Origin: Myxococcota bacterium
GTDB taxonomy: Bacteria > Myxococcota_A > UBA9160 > UBA6930
Length of the DNA: 64,000 nucleotides
Direction of reading: 5' to 3'
NCBI GenBank assembly: GCA_965223705.1
Contig: OZ245015.1
Span: 1,632,001-1,696,000 of the forward strand
The position numbers were made by a program. This document shows, one piece after another, positions 3,001 through 36,000 of the stretch. The first letter of the stretch is position 1, and each line of letters begins with the position of its first letter.

Positions 3001-6000
3001 AGGGCGATACGCTCGAATTCGGTTCGGACTTCACCGCCCGGAATGATGACGTTCTGCGCTTCTAGCAGGACCTGAAGCTGCGCAGGCGAGAGCCCGAGCT
3101 CCGCGAGTCGCGCGTTGTTGTATTCGAGAAAGATGCGCTTGTCCTGGCGCCCGTAGATCTCGACTTTCGCGACCGAATCGATCAGCAGGAGCTCGTCGCG
3201 CACGAAATCCGCTACATCGTCGAGCTCGGCGTAGCTAAACCCGTCGCCCGTGATTCCAATGACCGTGCCGAAGACGTCGCCGAATTCATCGTTGACGGTC
3301 GGGCCGATCACACCGTCTGGGAGATCGGGCGTCGCCTTCTCGACCTTGCGACGCAACAGGTCCCAGACTTCTTGCAGAGCGTGGCCGGGGACGTCATCGC
3401 GCAGGCTCACGTGGATGATCGACACGCCCGTTTTCGACTGGCTCGATACGAAATCGAGCTCGGGGATTTCCTGGATCGTCTTTTCGAGCTTGTCGGTGAT
3501 GAGGAGTTCGACACGCTCGGGACTCGCGCCGGGGTAGAGCGTCTGCACCACCGCGACGCGGATCGGGAACCCCGGATCTTCGGCGCGCGACATGCCGAGG
3601 TACGCAGAAATTCCCGCGATGAGGATCGCGACGAGAGCGACCGCGGTGATGCGGTCTTTTTCGAGCGCGAAACGTGTCATGGTTGCGGGGCCGCGACCTC
3701 GGGCGGCTTCACGGCCATGCCGTCCCGCAGGCGTCGGACGCCCGCCGTGACCACGACATCGCCCGTGCTGACCCCGGTGAGGACTTCGATCCCTTCGCTC
3801 GTCAGCTCGCCGACTGTGACCGGTCTGCGCACGACGCGCGCTTCCTCGCCGGCGGTCTCCACGAGGAAGACAAAGCGACCGTCCCGATCTTCTCCCACGG
3901 CGACGGGTGGCAAGACGAAGCGCGCTTCGCCTCCGTTCGCGACAAAAGAGAAGCTCGCTTCGGCGGCCATGCCCGGCCGGACAGCGCCGTTGACTTCGTT
4001 CAGGAGGAGCGTGACGGGGTAGGTGGTGGACGCTCCCGTCGAGGCGACGCCGACCTCGTTGACCGTCGCCCCAAAGGTCTGCCCCTCGAGCGCGTCGAAC
4101 TGAACCGTCACCGCGTCGCCTGTGTGGATTGCGCCGATCAACGCCTCGGGAATCGTGAGCTCTACTTCGATCTGATCGCCGGAAGTCAGAACGGCCACGG
4201 GCGTGCCCGCCGCAACGTTCTCCCCGACCTCGCCGGGGATGCTCGAGATGGCCCCGGCGACGGCGGCCCGAAGCTTCGTGTAGGACAGCTGTGAGCGAGC
4301 GAGGCGGAGCTGCATCGAAGACGACGAGACCTGGGCTCGCCCCGATTCTGCGGCGGCGCGGGCGGAGTCCAGATCCGCACGGGAAGCGTTGTTGTTTTCG
4401 TAGAGTTCCCGCACGCGCTCGTAGTTCGCGCGCCCGTTGCGATCCTGTGCTCGCGACGACGCAAGCTGGGCTTCCGCTTGCTGGACCTGCAGCGAGAAAT
4501 CGCTCGCGTCGAGCTCCGCGATGAGCTGTGAGGGCTCGACCGTTTGCCCGACGCGTACGTGAATCTGTTCGATCCGGCCGGCGACGCGAAAAGAAAGCTC
4601 CGACTCGACACCGGCCCGGGCGACCCCCGAGAAGGTACGGGTCCGTGTCCCATCCTCTTCACTCACCACAATGGTGCGGACGGGGCGCAGAGGAGCCGGC
4701 GGTTCGGGCGGGTTGCCTCCGCAGGCGACGAGGGCCAGCGTGGCGATCACAATGGAACGGTCCAAGCGCGCGGTCATGGATGGATCCCTCGGCTGCGGAA
4801 GTAGTCCTGATACTCGCGCAAGAGTTCGCTGCGCTCTTCGTCCGTCATGAAGAGGTCGAACCGTCCGATGGCCCGCTGCGCCTGCATCAGCTCGATCAAG
4901 AAATCGTACTCGGCATTGGCCGCGACTTGGTTCGCCACGAGCGCGGCGTTCTGGGCATCGAGTAGATCGAGGATCTCCGCCGCGCCCCGCGCGTACGCGT
5001 CGCCCACGAGATCGAAATTGGCCTGCGCCGCCTCTGCGGCATCCCGAGCCAGCGCGATTTGAGCGAACGCGCCGCCCGTCGCCAGCAGTGCGGACCGCGT
5101 GCGCTGCTCGATCCGATCCCGCGTCGCCGCCCGCTGCGTCTTGAGTTGTCGTAGCTCGAGATCGCTCCGCCGCAATTCCGCGAAGCGGCGGCCCCCTGCG
5201 AAGAGGGGATAGCTCGCAGTCAGCGCGATCGACCAATCGGAATCATTGCTGTCGGGCGTCAGCGACGCGATCGGCTCGGGAAGGTCTCCCCGCGCTCCAC
5301 CGCGGCCGAGTTCATCGGCGACGCTGGCTTGAAGCCCCACGCTCGGGAGGAGGAAGTCTCGACGGCGGTTCTTGACCACGCGCTCTTGGGCGCTGACCCC
5401 AGCATCGAGCTGGGCGAGCTCGGGCGACTGGCGCAAGCTCAAGCGGGCCAGGAAGTCGCGAAACACGCGATACTTCTCCGGATTGTCGATCGTCGTCGAG
5501 AGCACTGGATCGGTGAACACGAGTCCGAGCGCGTCGACGTCGACGTCGCTTGCCTCGTAGTCCTGCTCGAGCTCGCGACGGAGCAGACGGTTGAGCGCGA
5601 TCTTGGCCTGGGCGGTCGCGACCACCGCATCGATCACCGCCTGGCGATCCGTCGCGATCTGACTCTCCCAGCGGTAGATCTCACTCGCCGCCGCGGTACC
5701 GATACGCCCGCGTACCCGAGCGAGCTCGAGGTTCTGCCGGGTGAGGCGCACGTTCTCGCGCTGAATCCGCTCGAGCGCCCGGGCGCGAAGGACGTCGAGA
5801 AAACCCACAGCGCCGTCGCGCGTGATATTGAGCTCGAGTTCGCGTCGCGCAGCGCGCCGGGCCACCTGTCGCTCTTTCTCGACGTCGAAGCCGGCCCAGG
5901 CGTCGTCGTCGTACAGCAGCTGACGCAGGACGAGCGAACCCGTCGCGGAACGCTCGGAAGCCGTACCGCCGCTGGCCAAGGCTCGGTCCGCGTCGATTTG

Positions 6001-33000: not shown

Positions 33001-36000
33001 AGCTCGGTGGGCTCGGCTCTTGGGAGCTCAACGCCACGACCCAAGAGTTCGGCGTCAGCCCGGAACTCCAACTACTGCTCGGCCTGGACGACACATCTTC
33101 GAGTTGGCAACCGTTCTACGCGGCGATCGAGCGAGAAGATCGCGCCGCGTTCGAAAAGCTCATCCGCACCGTTCGCGAAACCGGACAGCGAGGAACGCTC
33201 GAACATCGCGTGATCGTCGGCGAATCCGAAGTTCGCCACGTCGAGCACACCGTCGAGCTCGCTTCTGCGCCAACGGGCGAGCGGCGCTTCCAGGGCACCG
33301 TGCGAGACGTCACGGAGCGGCGACGCGCCCAGGATCAGGTCGAGTTCCTCGAAGATTTCGATTCCGTTACCACGCTTCCGAACCGGAATCTGCTGCGCCG
33401 TCGCTTGGAGCGGTTAGTGGAGCGGAGCGATCGCGGAAGGGGATCGATCATTGTGCTGTGCGTCGGCCTCGACCGCTTCGAGCGCGTGAACCGCGGCCTC
33501 GGGCTGCAAGCTGGAGACGCACTTCTCCGGGCCGTCGCCACGCGTTTGGTCGAGTCGGTCCGCGTCACGGATTTCATCGGGCGCGCGTCCGGACCTCCCG
33601 AGATCTCGCGGCAGGGCGGCGACGAGTTCACCATCGTCATCGGCGGAGGGGAGCTTTCCGGCGAACTCAACGTCGCCGTCAACCGGATCCTGCGTGTGTT
33701 CCAGAGCCCCTTCGACATCGACGGTCGTCGCGTGCCCGTGAGCGCGAGCATCGGAGTGTCGCGCTATCCCGAAGACGGCGACAGTGTCGATGCGCTCCTC
33801 GGCAGCGCCGCCGCAGCCATGGTGCGCGCCAAGAAAGCCGGAGGAGGGCGTTACCACTTCTTCGACCCCGGCGCCGATCGCGCCGCGAAGAACGAGCTCG
33901 CCGTAGAATCCGACTTCACGCGTGCGATCGAGCGGAACGAGTTGTTTCTCGAGTATCAGCCCGTGTGCGACGCCCGAGACGGCTCGCTCGTATCCGTCGA
34001 AGCGCTCGTGCGCTGGAACCACCCGACCCGCGGCAGGCTCGGACCGATGGATTTCGTGCCCACCGTCGAGTCGAGCGGGCAGGCCACCGCACTCGGAAAC
34101 TGGGTCCTGCGCGAAGGCTGTCGCCAGCTGCGTGAGTGGGACCAACAAGGCCTCGAAGGCCTATCGCTCAACGTCAATGTCTCACCACAACAGTTCGTCG
34201 GCGGCGACCTCGGAACCTTCGTGCAGAAAATCCTCGCCGATACCGGCTTCGATCCGAACCGACTCGAGATCGAGCTCACCGAGACCTCCCTCGTCGGCGA
34301 CGGCGACGAAGTCGAAACCGCGTGCCAGACGCTCCGGACCTTGGGTGTCGGCTTGGCCCTCGACGACTTCGGCACCGGGTTTTCGTCACTCAGTCACCTC
34401 ATCCGCTTCCAGATCGACACACTTAAAATCGACCGCAGCTTCGTCAGTCGACTCGAAGAAGGCGGGACCGCGGCCGCTGTCACCGCGGCGGTGATCGCCA
34501 TGGCGCGGCGCCTCGGTATCACCGTCGTTGCGGAAGGCGTCGAAACCGATGCGCAGGCTCGGTTTCTCAAAGCGGAGCGCTGCGAACGGCTGCAGGGCTA
34601 CTTGCTGAGCCGACCGCTCTTGCCGGAGCAGCTGCTTGACTGGGCGCAGGAGCGGAGCGGGGAGCCTACTCCGAAGGCGGACTAGCGAGCGGAACGCTCT
34701 GGGCCAGCGAATAATCGATCGCGGCTTGGAGCTTGTTCTCGATCTGGAAGTAGCGAAGTAGCTTCGGCCCGGGAAGGACGGACTCGAATCGCGCGAGATA
34801 TCGGCTGCGCAACCCGATCCGATCGCGTCGAATCGCCAGAAACTCCTCGATCATCGCAACCGCGCGTAGGCCTTCCGGATCTTCCTTCTCGAAACCGAAC
34901 GTCTCGACCAGCTTGACCAGCCGATCGTTGATCCCTCGCAGTTCATGGAGTTGCCGGTCGTAGATCGGCCAGAACTCCGCAGCTTCCTTTGAAGACAGGT
35001 GAAGGTTTTCCGCGACGATCGCCCGATGGTTCTCCGCGATCGCCGCGCGCTCGAGCGCCACGCGTCGTTCGATGTCGGCGTCCGGATCCGACATCGCACC
35101 GACCGAACCCTCGATACGCTTGTGCGTGTCAGGGAAGGCTTCGCCTACCGATTGAGCCAACGCCGCGGGTGCGGCGAGAAGTACGGCCAGCCCGAGGCAA
35201 GAAAGTTCGAGTCGCATCGCCCGAAGCATTATTCTTCGGGAGGGAGATCGCCATGGCCCTCAAGCTCACCGAGTTCTTTTTCCGAAAGCCCGGGATGACG
35301 GCAGACGCCTTTCTCGACCACTGGCAGAAGCAGCACACCGGGGTCGTGTCCGCCATCGAGGGCCTCCGCCGCTACGTGCAAAACCCGGCCGCCGGGCTCT
35401 TAGTAGGGAGACCCAACCCCTTCGACGGCATGGTGGAAGTCTGGTTCGACGATTTCGCCGCCATCGAAGCGCTTCAGCAAAGCGACTATTGGGAGACCAT
35501 CGTCGAAGACGAACTTCGCTTCGTCGACCGGCCGACCATGCAATTGTTCTTCTCAGAGGAGCCCCTACCCGAGCGGTATGACCCCGGATACAAACAAGTC
35601 TTCCTGCTCGACCCAGCGGAGGGTATTTCGCTCGGGGCCTTCCGCGGCGAAGCCACGCGCGCGGTCGAGACATCGGCGCTCGATGGCCTGCGCGGCATCC
35701 AGCGCCAGCTGCCCGTATCAATCCCGGGCAACCCGCCAGCCTGCGCCGGCGCCGTCGAGATCTGGCGCTTCGAGAGCCTCACCGCCCTCGAAGCCGGGAT
35801 GAAGAGCCCCGGCGCGCGCGCCTTATGCGAAGCGCGCGAAACCTGGGCGGTCGCTCGAGAACCGCATACGGCCGAGGAGCGGGTGATCCGATAAGGGAGA
35901 TCCGCGAGCGGCGCCTATATATAGGGGCAGAAGCGGCGGAAAGGGTTTCTCCGAAGCCCCCGAATTTGCTAGCTTGCTCGCTCCCGCGGGGCGGTAGTTC

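Follow-up and report, generated by a model that had tools for sequence, protein, structure and literature searches.

LEPR-XLL giant adhesins as genetic partners and probable cargo of an M50-HlyD envelope module in Myxococcota

Introduction

The two-helix finger of SecA drives chains into SecY, and this finger, the wing and the C-terminal tail are the parts of SecA used with SecY and SecB. A module that combines a secondary SecA with an M50-protease/HlyD fusion and further HlyD-type proteins has been in print since 2015, and the LEPR-XLL motif was put forward as a putative export signal in 2004; in the literature that we searched, no link between the two was found. A genome-wide survey of a Myxococcota bacterium had noted two copies of this four-gene module, each beside a giant repeat adhesin, and had proposed that the adhesins are its cargo. 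Here we analyze one of these loci within the window (the whole 64,000-nt stretch of contig OZ245015.1 under study), together with its relatives in other genomes. The observation as a whole is confirmed, and its interpretation is supported in part.

Results

The adhesin gene is divergent from the genes for GAF-HlyD, M50-HlyD and a 655-aa SecA paralogue (SecA2), and three HlyD-type proteins and one outer-membrane factor (OEP) are among the products of the locus. M50-HlyD likely starts at Met13 (position 23395), overlapping the GAF-HlyD stop codon, while its end overlaps the SecA2 start by 8 nt. Across 80 related loci, GAF-HlyD lies directly upstream of M50-HlyD in 78, and the small HlyD is found in 61, mostly immediately after SecA2. 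Both copies had been said to carry a matching gene set, and the second locus (C1:1199727-1220165; locus 1 in Table 1), 430 kb away, does have the same one. The OEP gene begins 20 nt beyond the end of the adhesin gene, and its product has an N-terminal extension of about 350 residues, with no Pfam match in the first 364 aa. Downstream on the same strand lie genes for an RND adaptor, whose true start is probably later than annotated, and an RND permease. As the OEP gene heads this OEP-MFP-RND pump operon, the OEP may not be the module's alone, and may even be part of the pump.

Table 1 Features of the adhesin and SecA2-M50-HlyD locus (window positions).
Feature	Position	Strand	Basis
RND adaptor (3677-5236) and RND permease (624-3680)	624..5236	-	RND_mfp 1.8e-74; ACR_tran E 4e-166
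TolC-like OEP outer-membrane factor, 805 aa	4774..7191	-	OEP E 1.4e-33, residues ~360-779
Giant repeat adhesin, proposed cargo	7211..21484	-	ORF; 4757 aa from GTG 21484, 4751 aa from ATG 21466
Moderately hydrophobic C-terminal stretch SLAIAGATGLLSVIMRSSSLAAIGFSAVPLW	7349..7444 (approximate)	-	Translation; ~46-77 residues before end
DUF4347, predicted CHAT/caspase/CPD-like fold	20729..21238	-	PF14252 E 3e-55 (6e-57 in second search), residues 83-252
N-terminal leader, Arg/Lys-rich stretch then LEALEPRILLS (LEPR-XLL) motif	21362..21466	-	Translation; NF012209
GAF-HlyD, cytoplasmic GAF sensor domain fused to periplasmic adaptor	21650..23395	+	Pfam GAF, HlyD_3, HlyD_D23
M50-HlyD, fusion of RRE, S2P/M50-like HExxH intramembrane protease and HlyD	23359..25536	+	Pfam, NCBIfam, alignment, model
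SecA2, 655-aa SecA paralogue	25529..27496	+	Pfam; alignment to B. subtilis SecA
PAS-GGDEF diguanylate cyclase	27503..29005	-	Pfam, NCBIfam; 4 nt downstream of small HlyD
Small HlyD-type adaptor, 338 aa	29009..30025	-	Pfam, NCBIfam RND_mfp
Hybrid histidine kinase HAMP-HisKA-HATPase-REC-Hpt	29986..32568	+	Pfam, NCBIfam; paralogue in locus 1
REC-PAS-GGDEF-EAL c-di-GMP enzyme	32565..34685	+	Pfam, NCBIfam; paralogue in locus 1

The adhesin begins MAPPRRRRKHKRPVRPACDTARLEALEPRILLS in translation, and its leader scores 22.4 bits against NF012209 (cut-off 17). This profile exceeds its cut-off at exactly two places in the genome, and DUF4347 likewise occurs at exactly two, in the same two ORFs; these are the ORFs of the two module loci, in agreement with the survey's count of one LEPR-XLL protein per module. 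The K/R-rich stretch and the motif are common to all 26 N-termini that we compared. The subtype of the leader covaries with the class of M50-HlyD, with 'ALEPRxhhD(G/A)A' in 11/11 cases of one class versus 'hExhEPRxhhS' in 12/12 of the other.

Behind the leader, the DUF4347 domain has conserved His137 and Cys180 in its alignment (numbering from ATG 21466). Its structure model, with a core pLDDT above 90, resembles Tce1 (9qpe_G; Z 12.9) and SAVED-CHAT (Z 9.6), and its Foldseek matches include caspases. Alignment and model thus both back the earlier description of a caspase/CPD-like His-Cys domain, and a CHAT/caspase/CPD-like reading was also proposed in a 2026 paper on Tce1 (PMC13323088). The remainder of the protein contains 14-16 cadherin-like/tandem-95 repeats (Cadherin_4/Big_9/tandem-95), five LamG domains, and Lectin_C (C-lectin), Pentaxin (pentraxin) and DUF642 domains by Pfam and NCBIfam. 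The TM anchor reported at its end corresponds to a hydrophobic stretch that is present but borderline (Kyte-Doolittle 19-residue maximum 1.58) and not conserved in sequence, although one relative (L073) has a stretch that resembles it; it is possible that this is a retention or anchor segment.

Co-occurrence in three genome samples, together with gene adjacency, supports the view that the LEPR-XLL proteins are dedicated, at the genetic level, to the M50-HlyD module, in Myxococcota and independently in Pseudomonadota. The order-level counts of the survey were reproduced: among 193 genomes, 43 strong DUF4347 matches fall in 34, and all 34 are included in the 47 with M50-HlyD (E<=1e-40). Its phylum-level association also holds in a sample of 301 genomes, where the 14 with NF012209 all lie within the 16 with a full-length M50-HlyD (leaving 2/16 that have no NF012209 match), and none of the 277 that lack an M50-HlyD match at E<=1e-20 has an NF012209 match. 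For 401 Pseudomonadota genomes, an M50-HlyD homologue is present in 53 of the 57 LEPR-XLL-positive genomes versus 44 of the 344 negative ones, with neither in 300 (Fisher p = 3e-34, a value overstated by kinship). The four genomes with LEPR-XLL only all have weak matches, one of them in a 64-aa frame, and the 44 of 97 M50-HlyD-positive genomes that have no NF012209 match contain either other cargo or variants missed by this short HMM.

The two genes are also close neighbours. In Pseudomonadota, 41 of 91 LEPR matches share a contig with the M50-HlyD gene, and the gap is at most 12 kb in 37 of these 41, mostly 1.3-5.5 kb. A LEPR-XLL gene, often encoding 5,000-12,000 aa, adjoins 41/80 module loci from other species: in 21 a LEPR or DUF4347 gene lies within the 10-kb flank, and a further 20 have a giant ORF reaching beyond the flank whose coordinates give it a LEPR-XLL start (4/5 and 16/24 of those checked). 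For another 30, neither a giant gene nor a LEPR gene adjoins the module, and many of these loci lie on short contigs. The same-order adjacency is seen in Myxococcota, Alpha-, Beta- and Gammaproteobacteria, Desulfuromonadales-like genomes and one Omnitrophota genome.

The M50-HlyD protein provides a plausible receptor for the leader. In its AF2 model (pLDDT 83.7), residues 37-109 form three strands and then three helices, and Foldseek aligns the model with the lasso B1 RRE bound to its leader (6jx3_B, TM 0.74), PqqD (5sxy, 0.64) and TbiB1 (0.67-0.70), with 5v1u also among the RRE matches. PqqD is sub-threshold on the window protein itself (E 0.0013), and PF05402 is precomputed by Pfam on many of its homologues. 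The model supports a PqqD/RRE-type leader-peptide-binding fold at the N-terminus. In the protease part, which Foldseek matches to S2P (3b4r, E 2.9e-3), H222, E223, H226, D254, N316, P319, D324 and G325 are invariant, as are both the HExxH and the NxxPxxxxDG motif; its closest named relatives are the RiPP leader peptidases NF041824 (daptide leader protease; 7.7e-43, below cut-off) and NF058609.

When the leader was modeled with M50-HlyD, using alignments built within this analysis, the complex scored 0.62, as compared to 0.00 for the best of three controls; this mark is attained by 116/157 solved complexes and 2/215 mismatched pairs. Because RRE-leader complexes have already been solved, part of this score may reflect structures that the predictor already knew. 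The runs share at least 67% of contacts, and the partner pLDDT is 47-49. Leader residues 20-35 make up the entire predicted interface, with contacts to RRE strand 58-63, helix 93-110, H222/E223/H226, 250-256 and 311-316. The complex model therefore supports a LEPR-XLL motif that is predicted to dock onto the RRE domain and into the HExxH site.

Two further general statements of the survey's note do not extend to the family. LEPR-type proteins are also linked to a paralogous locus class that has an OEP, two HlyD genes, M50-HlyD and the covarying leader subtype but no SecA2, and 5/5 genomes with such loci have a single SecA, so the pathway cannot be called SecA2-powered in general. Similarly, a GGDEF-EAL homologue lies near only 14/80 module loci; the c-di-GMP genes near the module are lineage-specific, and control by c-di-GMP is not a general feature.

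Discussion

We consider it probable that a leader-guided envelope machine, ABC-less but linked to TolC, has the giant adhesin as its dedicated substrate. The adhesin would be synthesized with a cytoplasmic N-terminal leader consisting of a basic stretch and hExhEPRxhhS, and the RRE (PqqD-like) domain of M50-HlyD would bind this leader as an added beta-strand, so that its EPRxhh segment would sit in the HExxH active site, which resembles that of site-2 proteases, and the leader would be clipped there. Where present, the wingless SecA2 may feed the unfolded polypeptide at the expense of ATP, and M50-HlyD, GAF-HlyD and the small HlyD would, with their HlyD parts, form a bridge to the TolC-like OEP, through which the chain would cross the envelope N-terminus first. 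Directly behind the leader, the Cys-protease-like DUF4347 domain could then act post-export in autoprocessing or release, and the C-terminal hydrophobic patch may keep the adhesin at the cell. In this lineage, the hybrid kinase, REC-GGDEF-EAL and PAS-GGDEF proteins probably tune the system via c-di-GMP, perhaps through the GAF domain. The model is built on gene content, linkage and co-occurrence together with the predicted folds and interface, and from these we infer binding and cleavage, which protein forms the inner-membrane channel, export direction, energy source and regulation. Some observations count against this reading: no component is an obvious inner-membrane protein channel, SecA2 has no two-helix finger and is missing from one class of LEPR-linked loci, and some M50-HlyD-positive genomes and module loci have no NF012209 match or giant neighbour.

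It is also conceivable, though in our view unlikely, that the module trims or anchors the giant protein and is not its translocon, the inner membrane being crossed otherwise, e.g. by an unlinked transporter or by a classical ABC-type T1SS that acts on a signal at the C-terminus. RRE-M50-HlyD would then only trim the leader or tether the N-terminus to the TolC duct, like a LapA retention module in mirror image. This would fit with there being no evident channel-forming inner-membrane protein among the module components and no ATPase whatsoever in the SecA2-less loci. One linked giant (L026) has RTX-like GGxGxD repeats toward its C-terminus, and haemolysin-type Ca-binding repeats are described for Azospirillum DUF4347 proteins in a passage of PMC13723633; both give a hint that some members are exported by a classical T1SS, and generic ABC exporters are encoded at C1:1165-1174 kb. 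However, Pfam and NCBIfam give no RTX family match for the window adhesin, and a profile search of this 95%-complete genome returned no classical T1SS ABC transporter over cut-off, which bears out the survey's term 'ABC-less'. In the relevant passage of Kamneva et al. 2015 (PMC4452313), ABC-transporter homologues were not identifiable within these loci, and three adaptors plus an OEP adjoining the cargo are the hallmark of a complete duct.

Quite improbable is a two-step Sec route, in which SecA2 (or SecA1 in SecA2-less species, whose genomes still have it) brings the LEPR-XLL leader to SecYEG, M50 acts as signal peptidase, and HlyD/OEP move a periplasmic intermediate over the outer membrane. 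SecA2 does keep NBD1, the preprotein cross-linking domain and NBD2, the basic N-region of the leader resembles a signal-peptide n-region, and a passage of Studholme et al., as cited in PMC8567305, counts toward a Sec-dependent leader. On the other hand, no Sec-type hydrophobic core is found in the 26 leaders (15-residue Kyte-Doolittle maximum <=1.7), and SecA2, whose alignment to B. subtilis SecA chains spans only residues 16-601, is missing the helical wing, the C-terminal tail and the two-helix finger. The RRE domain and S2P active site of M50-HlyD also suggest that, as in RiPP pathways, the peptide recognized is soluble and cytoplasmic. Finally, we give hardly any credence to a regulatory or coincidental linkage, in which the module exports other cargo such as a small RiPP-like leader peptide and the giant genes are merely island neighbours: it draws on the RiPP peptidase relatives and on the Pseudomonadota genomes that have the module but no NF012209 match, yet has against it the adjacency across distant lineages, the module in 53/57 and 14/14 LEPR-positive genomes, the covariation of leader and protease, and a complex model predicted to use exactly the conserved motif.

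Returning to dedicated export, the genomic and modeled evidence suggests that a little-studied envelope gene set probably recognizes the LEPR-XLL tag, removes it, and exports a giant surface protein.

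Organization of the adhesin locus

Three genes diverge from the giant adhesin gene at a distance of 166–184 bp and encode GAF-HlyD, an HExxH/M50-like protein fused to an HlyD domain (M50-HlyD) and a short SecA (SecA2), with the conserved Met13 of M50-HlyD overlapping the GAF-HlyD stop codon. The adhesin itself contains 14–16 cadherin-like/tandem-95 repeats, five LamG domains, C-lectin, pentraxin and DUF642 (Pfam, NCBIfam), and its N-terminal sequence, MAPPRRRRKHKRPVRPACDTARLEALEPRILLS, leads into a DUF4347 domain (Pfam E 3e-55; PF14252, 186.7 bits against a cut-off of 24.6, and 193 bits in a second search). 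On NF012209, the model of the LEPR-XLL leader, the window adhesin scores 22.4 bits and the ORF of a second copy of the locus 29.8 bits, both over the curated cut-off of 17. Families of the HemolysinCabind/RTX type are absent among the adhesin's 14 Pfam families, a result that leaves room for a non-RTX C-terminal signal.

Genes and features of the adhesin locus and its surroundings in the window
Feature	Position	Strand	Remark
TolC-like OEP	4774-7191	-	805 aa; begins 20 bases past adhesin gene
Giant adhesin gene	7211-21484	-	14.3 kb; 4757 aa from GTG, 4751 aa from ATG 21466
GAF-HlyD	21650-23395	+	Pfam/NCBIfam
M50-HlyD	23359-25536	+	Pfam/NCBIfam
SecA2	25529-27496	+	655 aa; 8-nt overlap with M50-HlyD gene
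Small HlyD and PAS-GGDEF pair	27503-30025	-	
Small HlyD	29009-30025	-	first of pair
PAS-GGDEF	27503-29005	-	second of pair, after small HlyD
Hybrid histidine kinase	29986-32568	+	Pfam/NCBIfam
REC-PAS-GGDEF-EAL	32565-34685	+	Pfam/NCBIfam
Likely defence island	36126-51846		
SIR2_2-domain protein	within 36126-51846		1060 aa; defence island
AAA_15/AAA_21 ATPase	42372-43943		defence island
HsdS, type I restriction-modification	43943-45127		defence island
HsdM, type I restriction-modification	45124-46704		defence island
HsdR, type I restriction-modification	46701-50228		defence island
Sigma-54 activator	50275-51846		defence island
Phage-type integrase	57622-58890		

The OEP has a signal-peptide-like start followed by a 350-aa N-terminal extension without any Pfam match. 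Downstream of it on the same strand lie an RND adaptor and then an RND permease, so that a drug-type pump and the adhesin system may share one outer-membrane factor. Together with this OEP the locus encodes three HlyD-domain proteins, and the profile of our M50-HlyD alignment (A1) matches the HlyD chain 8dck_C (E 6e-6); no ABC transporter is found by Pfam/NCBIfam among the ORFs at 624-39308. The PAS-GGDEF gene follows the small HlyD gene after 4 nt, so that adaptor and diguanylate cyclase are directly coupled within a single transcription unit; in most relatives the small HlyD follows SecA2. A likely defence island lies beside the locus, and the G+C content drops to 0.58 at 42-46 kb of the window.

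The second copy of the locus (C1:1199727-1220165 on the genome contig C1, here locus 1) comprises small HlyD, SecA2, M50-HlyD, an HlyD protein, a REC-GGDEF-EAL protein, a hybrid kinase, the adhesin and a divergent OEP. Its adhesin is split into two overlapping frames of 1492 and 1181 aa (C1:1211396-1218440, or 12396-19440 of the fetched locus, L008). The split was checked on contigs of four public sequencing runs from one study, whose cover of the overlap is fragmentary and of low depth. One contig of run X3 carries indels of net +6 at L008:15013-15125 that leave the frame relation of both ORFs unchanged, and at L008:15839-15840 one 202-nt contig of run X2 (depth 5.03 of 8.23) contains two additional letters with which, by frame arithmetic, the first ORF would continue into the second. 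This is a hint that the split may stem from the assembly or from variation in the population, part of which may have an intact gene.

Across the genome, NF012209 scores over its cut-off at exactly two places and DUF4347 likewise at two, in the same two ORFs, which are also the only LEPR-XLL ORFs returned by a motif scan of all ORFs. A third NF012209 candidate at C1:1355411 (15.2 bits, below threshold) begins some 120 residues into a 2706-aa helical-repeat-like ORF and was rejected as a leader. The genome, which is 95% complete, has no T1SS ABC transporter of HlyB or PrtD type over the NCBIfam cut-off; the highest scores genome-wide, 349 bits against a cut-off of 725 and 231 bits against 510, both come from outside the locus.

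LEPR-XLL giants and the module occur together

The association of these adhesins with the module, which the genome-wide survey's note had reported for the order and the phylum, was reproduced at both levels. Among 193 genomes of the order, 43 strong DUF4347 matches fall in 34 genomes, every one of which belongs to the 47 with M50-HlyD (E<=1e-40); four further genomes have weak DUF4347 matches and no M50-HlyD. In a sample of 301 genomes of the phylum, NF012209 is found in 14, all among the 16 with a full-length M50-HlyD, and in 0 of the 277 genomes that have no M50-HlyD match at E<=1e-20; two module genomes (G498 and G608) have no LEPR match. When a LEPR match and an M50-HlyD gene share a contig in this Myxococcota sample, the distance between them is mostly 2–5 kb.

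The same pairing is seen in 401 evenly drawn genomes of Pseudomonadota, where NF012209 matches 57 genomes (91 matches, whose ORFs nearly all run to thousands of codons, the longest to 19,427) and A1 matches 97 at E<=1e-20. Both are present in 53 genomes, LEPR alone in 4, M50-HlyD alone in 44 and neither in 300 (Fisher p 3e-34, a value inflated by kinship). The four LEPR-only genomes have weak matches throughout, one of them in a 64-aa frame. On the level of contigs, 41 of the 91 LEPR matches lie together with an M50-HlyD gene, and in 37 of these 41 the gap from ORF to gene is at most 12 kb.

The A1 alignment, built from 20 M50-HlyD homologues, was used to fetch 80 loci from other species, mostly Alpha-, Beta- and Gammaproteobacteria, with a few from Desulfuromonadales-like bacteria, Myxococcota, Flavobacteriales and Omnitrophota. 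Isolates in which the module was seen include Neptuniibacter caesariensis MED92, Marinobacterium rhizophilum DSM 18822 and Jannaschia seohaensis. Gene order is conserved in these loci, with GAF-HlyD in 78/80, SecA2 in 70/80 and small HlyD in 61/80. A LEPR-XLL or DUF4347 gene lies within the 10-kb flank, usually directly after small HlyD, in 21 loci; in 20 others a giant ORF leaves the flank, ends 0.5–1 kb before GAF-HlyD and has, by whole-genome coordinates, its LEPR-XLL start 16–38 kb away (4 of 5 genomes in one check and 16 of 24 in another, the remainder of the 24 being six genomes with LEPR matches on other contigs and two with none). A LEPR-XLL gene thus demonstrably adjoins 41 of the 80 module loci. 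Nine more have a giant upstream ORF whose N-terminus is unlinked, and in 30, many of them on short contigs, no cargo gene was found.

Control by c-di-GMP, as the note proposed, is not supported as a general rule: both loci in this genome have a GGDEF-EAL gene, but a homologue is near just 14 of the 80 module loci. An OEP gene neighbors the module here and in the weak-class loci described below; tblastn with four OEP queries, a method of low sensitivity for divergent OEPs, gave a match in 1 of 88 loci of other species (L057).

A sister system without SecA2

The SecA of the window aligns solely to residues 16–601 of B. subtilis SecA structures. It retains both nucleotide-binding domains and the preprotein cross-linking domain, and is without the helical wing, the two-helix finger and the C-terminal tail.

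The A1 matches in Pseudomonadota are of two classes: full-length ones (E<1e-100), found in 40 genomes, and weaker ones (E 1e-43 to 1e-86), the only class in another 57. Both classes have linked LEPR genes. Five weak-class loci were inspected and contain cargo, OEP, small HlyD, GAF-HlyD and M50-HlyD but no SecA, and each of the five genomes has a single full-size SecA. As a general description of the pathway, 'SecA2-powered' is not supported. SecA2 is an addition in one clade. Because it is missing in the weak-class loci, the constant partners of the leader are M50-HlyD, two further adaptors and, where visible, the OEP. Among five strong-class loci without an adjacent SecA2, a SecA2-like gene is found elsewhere in three genomes. 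The sister-system loci (L098-L110, from other genomes) have a paralogous M50-HlyD, and one of them, L098, has a sulfotransferase gene between the protease and cargo genes.

The leaders differ along with the protease: those of the weak class read ALEPRxhhD(G/A)A in 11/11, and those of the strong class hExhEPRxhhS(A/G)(D/E) in 12/12.

Leader and C-terminus of the cargo

The 26 N-termini that we gathered begin with a short K/R-rich stretch, and the motif follows 12–70 residues from the start. A hydrophobic core is present in 0/26 leaders, with a 15-residue Kyte-Doolittle maximum of at most 1.7. DUF4347 stands behind the leader in 17 of the 26 and is a frequent, not an obligatory, companion. A planctomycete motif, RRLxxExLExRxLLA (PF07595, Planc_extracel), was put forward in 2004 as a novel export signal (Studholme et al., as cited in the available text of PMC8567305). 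PF07595 (gathering score 25.5 bits) gave no match on the window leader, and three of five leaders tested reach 14–18 bits, which is below threshold.

At the other end of the protein, the TM anchor described in the note is in part borne out, as the C-terminus is moderately hydrophobic with a borderline Kyte-Doolittle value of 1.58, but its sequence is not conserved: when phmmer compared the last 260 aa of the window adhesin with 115 C-termini taken from the loci, nothing matched at E<=0.01. By eye, the C-termini of linked giants (in loci L020, L037, L048, L058, L063, L070, L072 and others) show a short hydrophobic stretch ending in G-W and followed by basic residues, 40–70 aa from the end, and these proteobacterial giants also have an (I/V)(D/R)W motif within the last 10–30 residues. 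The two patches may be a second, C-terminal sorting or retention signal. Two further giant ORFs (L031, L038) contain a zinc-protease-like MHE(L/I)GH within the C-terminal 150 aa, and the giant of L026 has RTX-like GGxGxD repeats near its C-terminus.

M50-HlyD is predicted to combine a leader-binding fold with a site-2-type protease

M50-HlyD is a family of ~715 aa with ~45% identity across phyla. The HExxH, PVPYVDAS and NxxPxxxxDG motifs, the first and last of which site-2 proteases carry on separate membrane helices, are invariant in the alignment, as are H222, E223, H226, N316, P319, D324 and G325 in 20 sequences. The Pfam M50 score of 26.1 bits is just below the cut-off of 27.2. NF041824, the model of the daptide leader protease, covers the first 362 residues (E 7.7e-43, 147 bits, cut-off 300), and PqqD (PF05402), which is precomputed on many homologues, matches residues 50–110 at E 0.0013, its 19.5 bits falling short of the cut-off, 23.4.

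An AF2 model of residues 1–440 (pLDDT 83.7) places three strands and three helices at residues 37–109, followed by a helical membrane domain. In Foldseek searches, the M. jannaschii site-2 protease (3b4r_A) is matched with E 2.9e-3, and the whole 440-aa model has no match at E<=0.001. The RRE matches are led by the lasso B1 protein with its leader (6jx3_B, TM 0.74, rmsd 3.0) and include TbiB1 with leader (5v1u/5v1v, TM 0.67–0.70), PqqD (5sxy, TM 0.64), ThcOx, TruD and TigE; their E-values are just 0.2–1, so that they rest on the per-target TM-score and on full coverage of small targets. A search of the A1 profile against solved structures returned adaptors and one marginal S2P match only, with no RRE, and the fold search was needed. 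We conclude from the model that M50-HlyD has a predicted PqqD/RRE-type fold at its N-terminus, which would bind the leader as an extra strand.

We then modeled a complex of M50-HlyD residues 1–440 (alignment A3) with leader residues 1–60 (from the adhesin alignment A2), both alignments being our own. The complex scored 0.61, 0.62 and 0.64 and all three controls 0.00, a mark that 116 of 157 solved complexes attain, as do 2 of 215 mismatched pairs; since RRE–leader complexes have already been solved, the model may owe part of its score to those structures. At least 67% of contacts are common to the runs, with a pLDDT of 47–49 for the partner, and confident contacts are limited to leader residues 20–35 (TARLEALEPRILLSTV). 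In this model, leader residues 23–26 pair with the RRE strand 59–62 and helix 99–110, and residues 27–31 are placed against H222/E223/H226, 250–256, 311–316 and 322–340, which make up the protease site.

DUF4347 has a predicted clan CD fold

In the A2 alignment, D81, H133, S136, H137, W165 and D174 (numbered from ATG 21466) are invariant and Y178-G179-C180 near-invariant, and the conserved stretches of DUF4347 are VHIISHG and LLFYGC. The core of the DUF4347 model has a pLDDT >90. Its top match by VIA-align is Tce1 (9qpe_G; Z 12.9, rmsd 2.9 Å over 147 residues), followed by SAVED-CHAT at Z 9.6, and by generic alpha/beta folds, C11 proteases and caspases at Z <=7.9; Foldseek returns caspases at E 4e-4 to 3e-3. 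The model thus predicts a clan CD (caspase/CHAT/CPD) fold for DUF4347, a putative peptidase, with a His-Gly...Cys dyad after hydrophobic strands. Tce1 (PA0256) is a DUF4347 protein and a T6SS cargo of P. aeruginosa (available text of PMC8262886), and was proposed in 2026, as a proposal only, to be a cysteine protease with a His/Cys pair aligning with the TcdB CPD dyad (available text of PMC13323088). It shares with the adhesin domain the conserved His...Cys pair as well as being its best structural match; in contrast, the DUF4347 studied here sits behind a putative export leader, near the N-terminus of a giant adhesin.

Discussion

Marine and soil Proteobacteria, Myxococcota and members of other phyla commonly have giant surface proteins, 5,000–19,000 residues long, and the export of many is unexplained. 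The reading best supported by our data is a leader-guided, ABC-less, TolC-linked export route. In it, the RRE domain of M50-HlyD would bind the leader and its S2P-like site would cleave the leader off, the adaptors and the OEP would form the duct, SecA2, where present, would feed the chain, and DUF4347 would act after export. We also put forward a broader hypothesis, to which we give slightly less than an even chance: that this is a distinct and widespread diderm secretion pathway for the very largest proteins. A cleavable LEPR-XLL leader would be read and cut by an RRE–S2P–adaptor fusion, oligomers of the fusion with two adaptors and a TolC-like channel would make an ABC-free duct that is entered N-terminus first, and a wingless SecA would drive one clade, the sister clade working without a dedicated ATPase.

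Peptidase-containing ABC exporters such as colicin V CvaAB-TolC read and cleave an N-terminal leader with a built-in protease domain and work with an HlyD-type adaptor and TolC. The closest analogy to the module would be such an exporter with protease and motor replaced, as in both cases the leader would be recognized and cut by a protease within an inner-membrane exporter that has an HlyD-type adaptor and TolC. However, the module is without an ABC transporter, its protease would be an RRE-guided intramembrane metalloprotease and not a C39 cysteine peptidase, its motor, where present, is a SecA paralogue, and its cargo has thousands of residues, unlike a small bacteriocin. The RiPP RRE-fused intramembrane HExxH proteases (NF041824; YydH/LiaK, NF058609) are similar in the N-terminal match over 362 of 379 model positions, the RRE-like fold and the S2P-like core, but M50-HlyD scores below the cut-off, is fused to an HlyD adaptor and is partnered by a giant protein rather than a small peptide.

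LapA, by comparison, relies on an ABC transporter and a C-terminal signal, and periplasmic LapG cleaves the plug at its N-terminus that retains it (LapBCE-LapD-LapG; available text of PMC8277102). Like the LapA-type T1SS systems, the window system has a giant repeat adhesin, a putative duct linked to TolC, c-di-GMP enzymes close by and, as proposed here, surface retention controlled by proteolysis, but here the signal is putatively N-terminal, no T1SS ABC transporter was found and the adhesin is without RTX repeats. On the LapD equivalog NF045673 (cut-off 1020), the REC-PAS-GGDEF-EAL and PAS-GGDEF proteins score 105 and 51 bits, far below. With regard to classical T1SS, HlyD-type fusion proteins and a TolC-type factor are present at the window locus, but an HlyB/PrtD-type ABC transporter and an RTX substrate are absent. 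Some members of the family may also use classical T1SS, as hinted by the RTX-like repeats that end one linked giant (L026) and by Azospirillum DUF4347 proteins with Ca-binding repeats (available text of PMC13723633).

Parts of this picture are already known: the module since 2015, the motif as a proposed export signal since 2004, and the domain by its NCBIfam name. The secondary SecA_DEAD locus of Kamneva, Poudel and Ward (2015; PMC4452313) consists of GAF-HlyD, Peptidase_M50-like/HlyD, a short SecA_DEAD and HlyD; an OEP is sometimes present, an ABC transporter is not. In its available passages the paper proposes a role related to secretion, in which SecA is the ATPase and M50 possibly a part of the membrane complex, calls the biological role 'completely unknown', and names neither cargo nor signal; Methylobacterium extorquens AM1 is among the carriers that it reports. 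The window has all four genes and no ABC transporter in the locus, the second locus has the same gene set, and the gene order is common to 70–78 of 80 related loci. Our analysis adds the LEPR-XLL giants as partners, a sister system that lacks SecA2, the predicted RRE domain with its docking model, and the covariation of leader and protease. Proteins with NF012209 or PF07595 are alike in having a short N-terminal motif on a large, extracellular-type protein, and we found no machinery assigned to either motif in the literature searched. That literature, with subscription journals outside its scope, also held no paper joining LEPR-XLL/DUF4347 proteins with the SecA2/M50/HlyD locus. A 2026 preprint on giant symbiosis proteins of Chlorochromatium aggregatum (bioRxiv 10.64898/2026.03.19.712371) still calls their signals unknown: its giants have no transport signal of a known kind, and one secA (Cag_1676) was acquired horizontally; Chlorobi are among the module-carrying phyla in the available text of PMC4452313.

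New from the window is a duplicated system in a Myxococcota genome with c-di-GMP genes, and new beyond it are the quantified test in Pseudomonadota, the leader/protease covariation and the docking result. A 20-year-old orphan signal motif and a 10-year-old orphan gene module are thereby linked, which gives both a testable function. The leader could predict surface-exposed giants in genome annotation, and it might act as an export tag for very large engineered proteins. If our reading is true, a leader-guided, ABC-less system would join the known envelope-spanning exporters, and protein secretion would for the first time be seen to employ a site-2 protease and a leader-recognition domain of the RiPP type; a SecA paralogue would also gain a new role in diderms.
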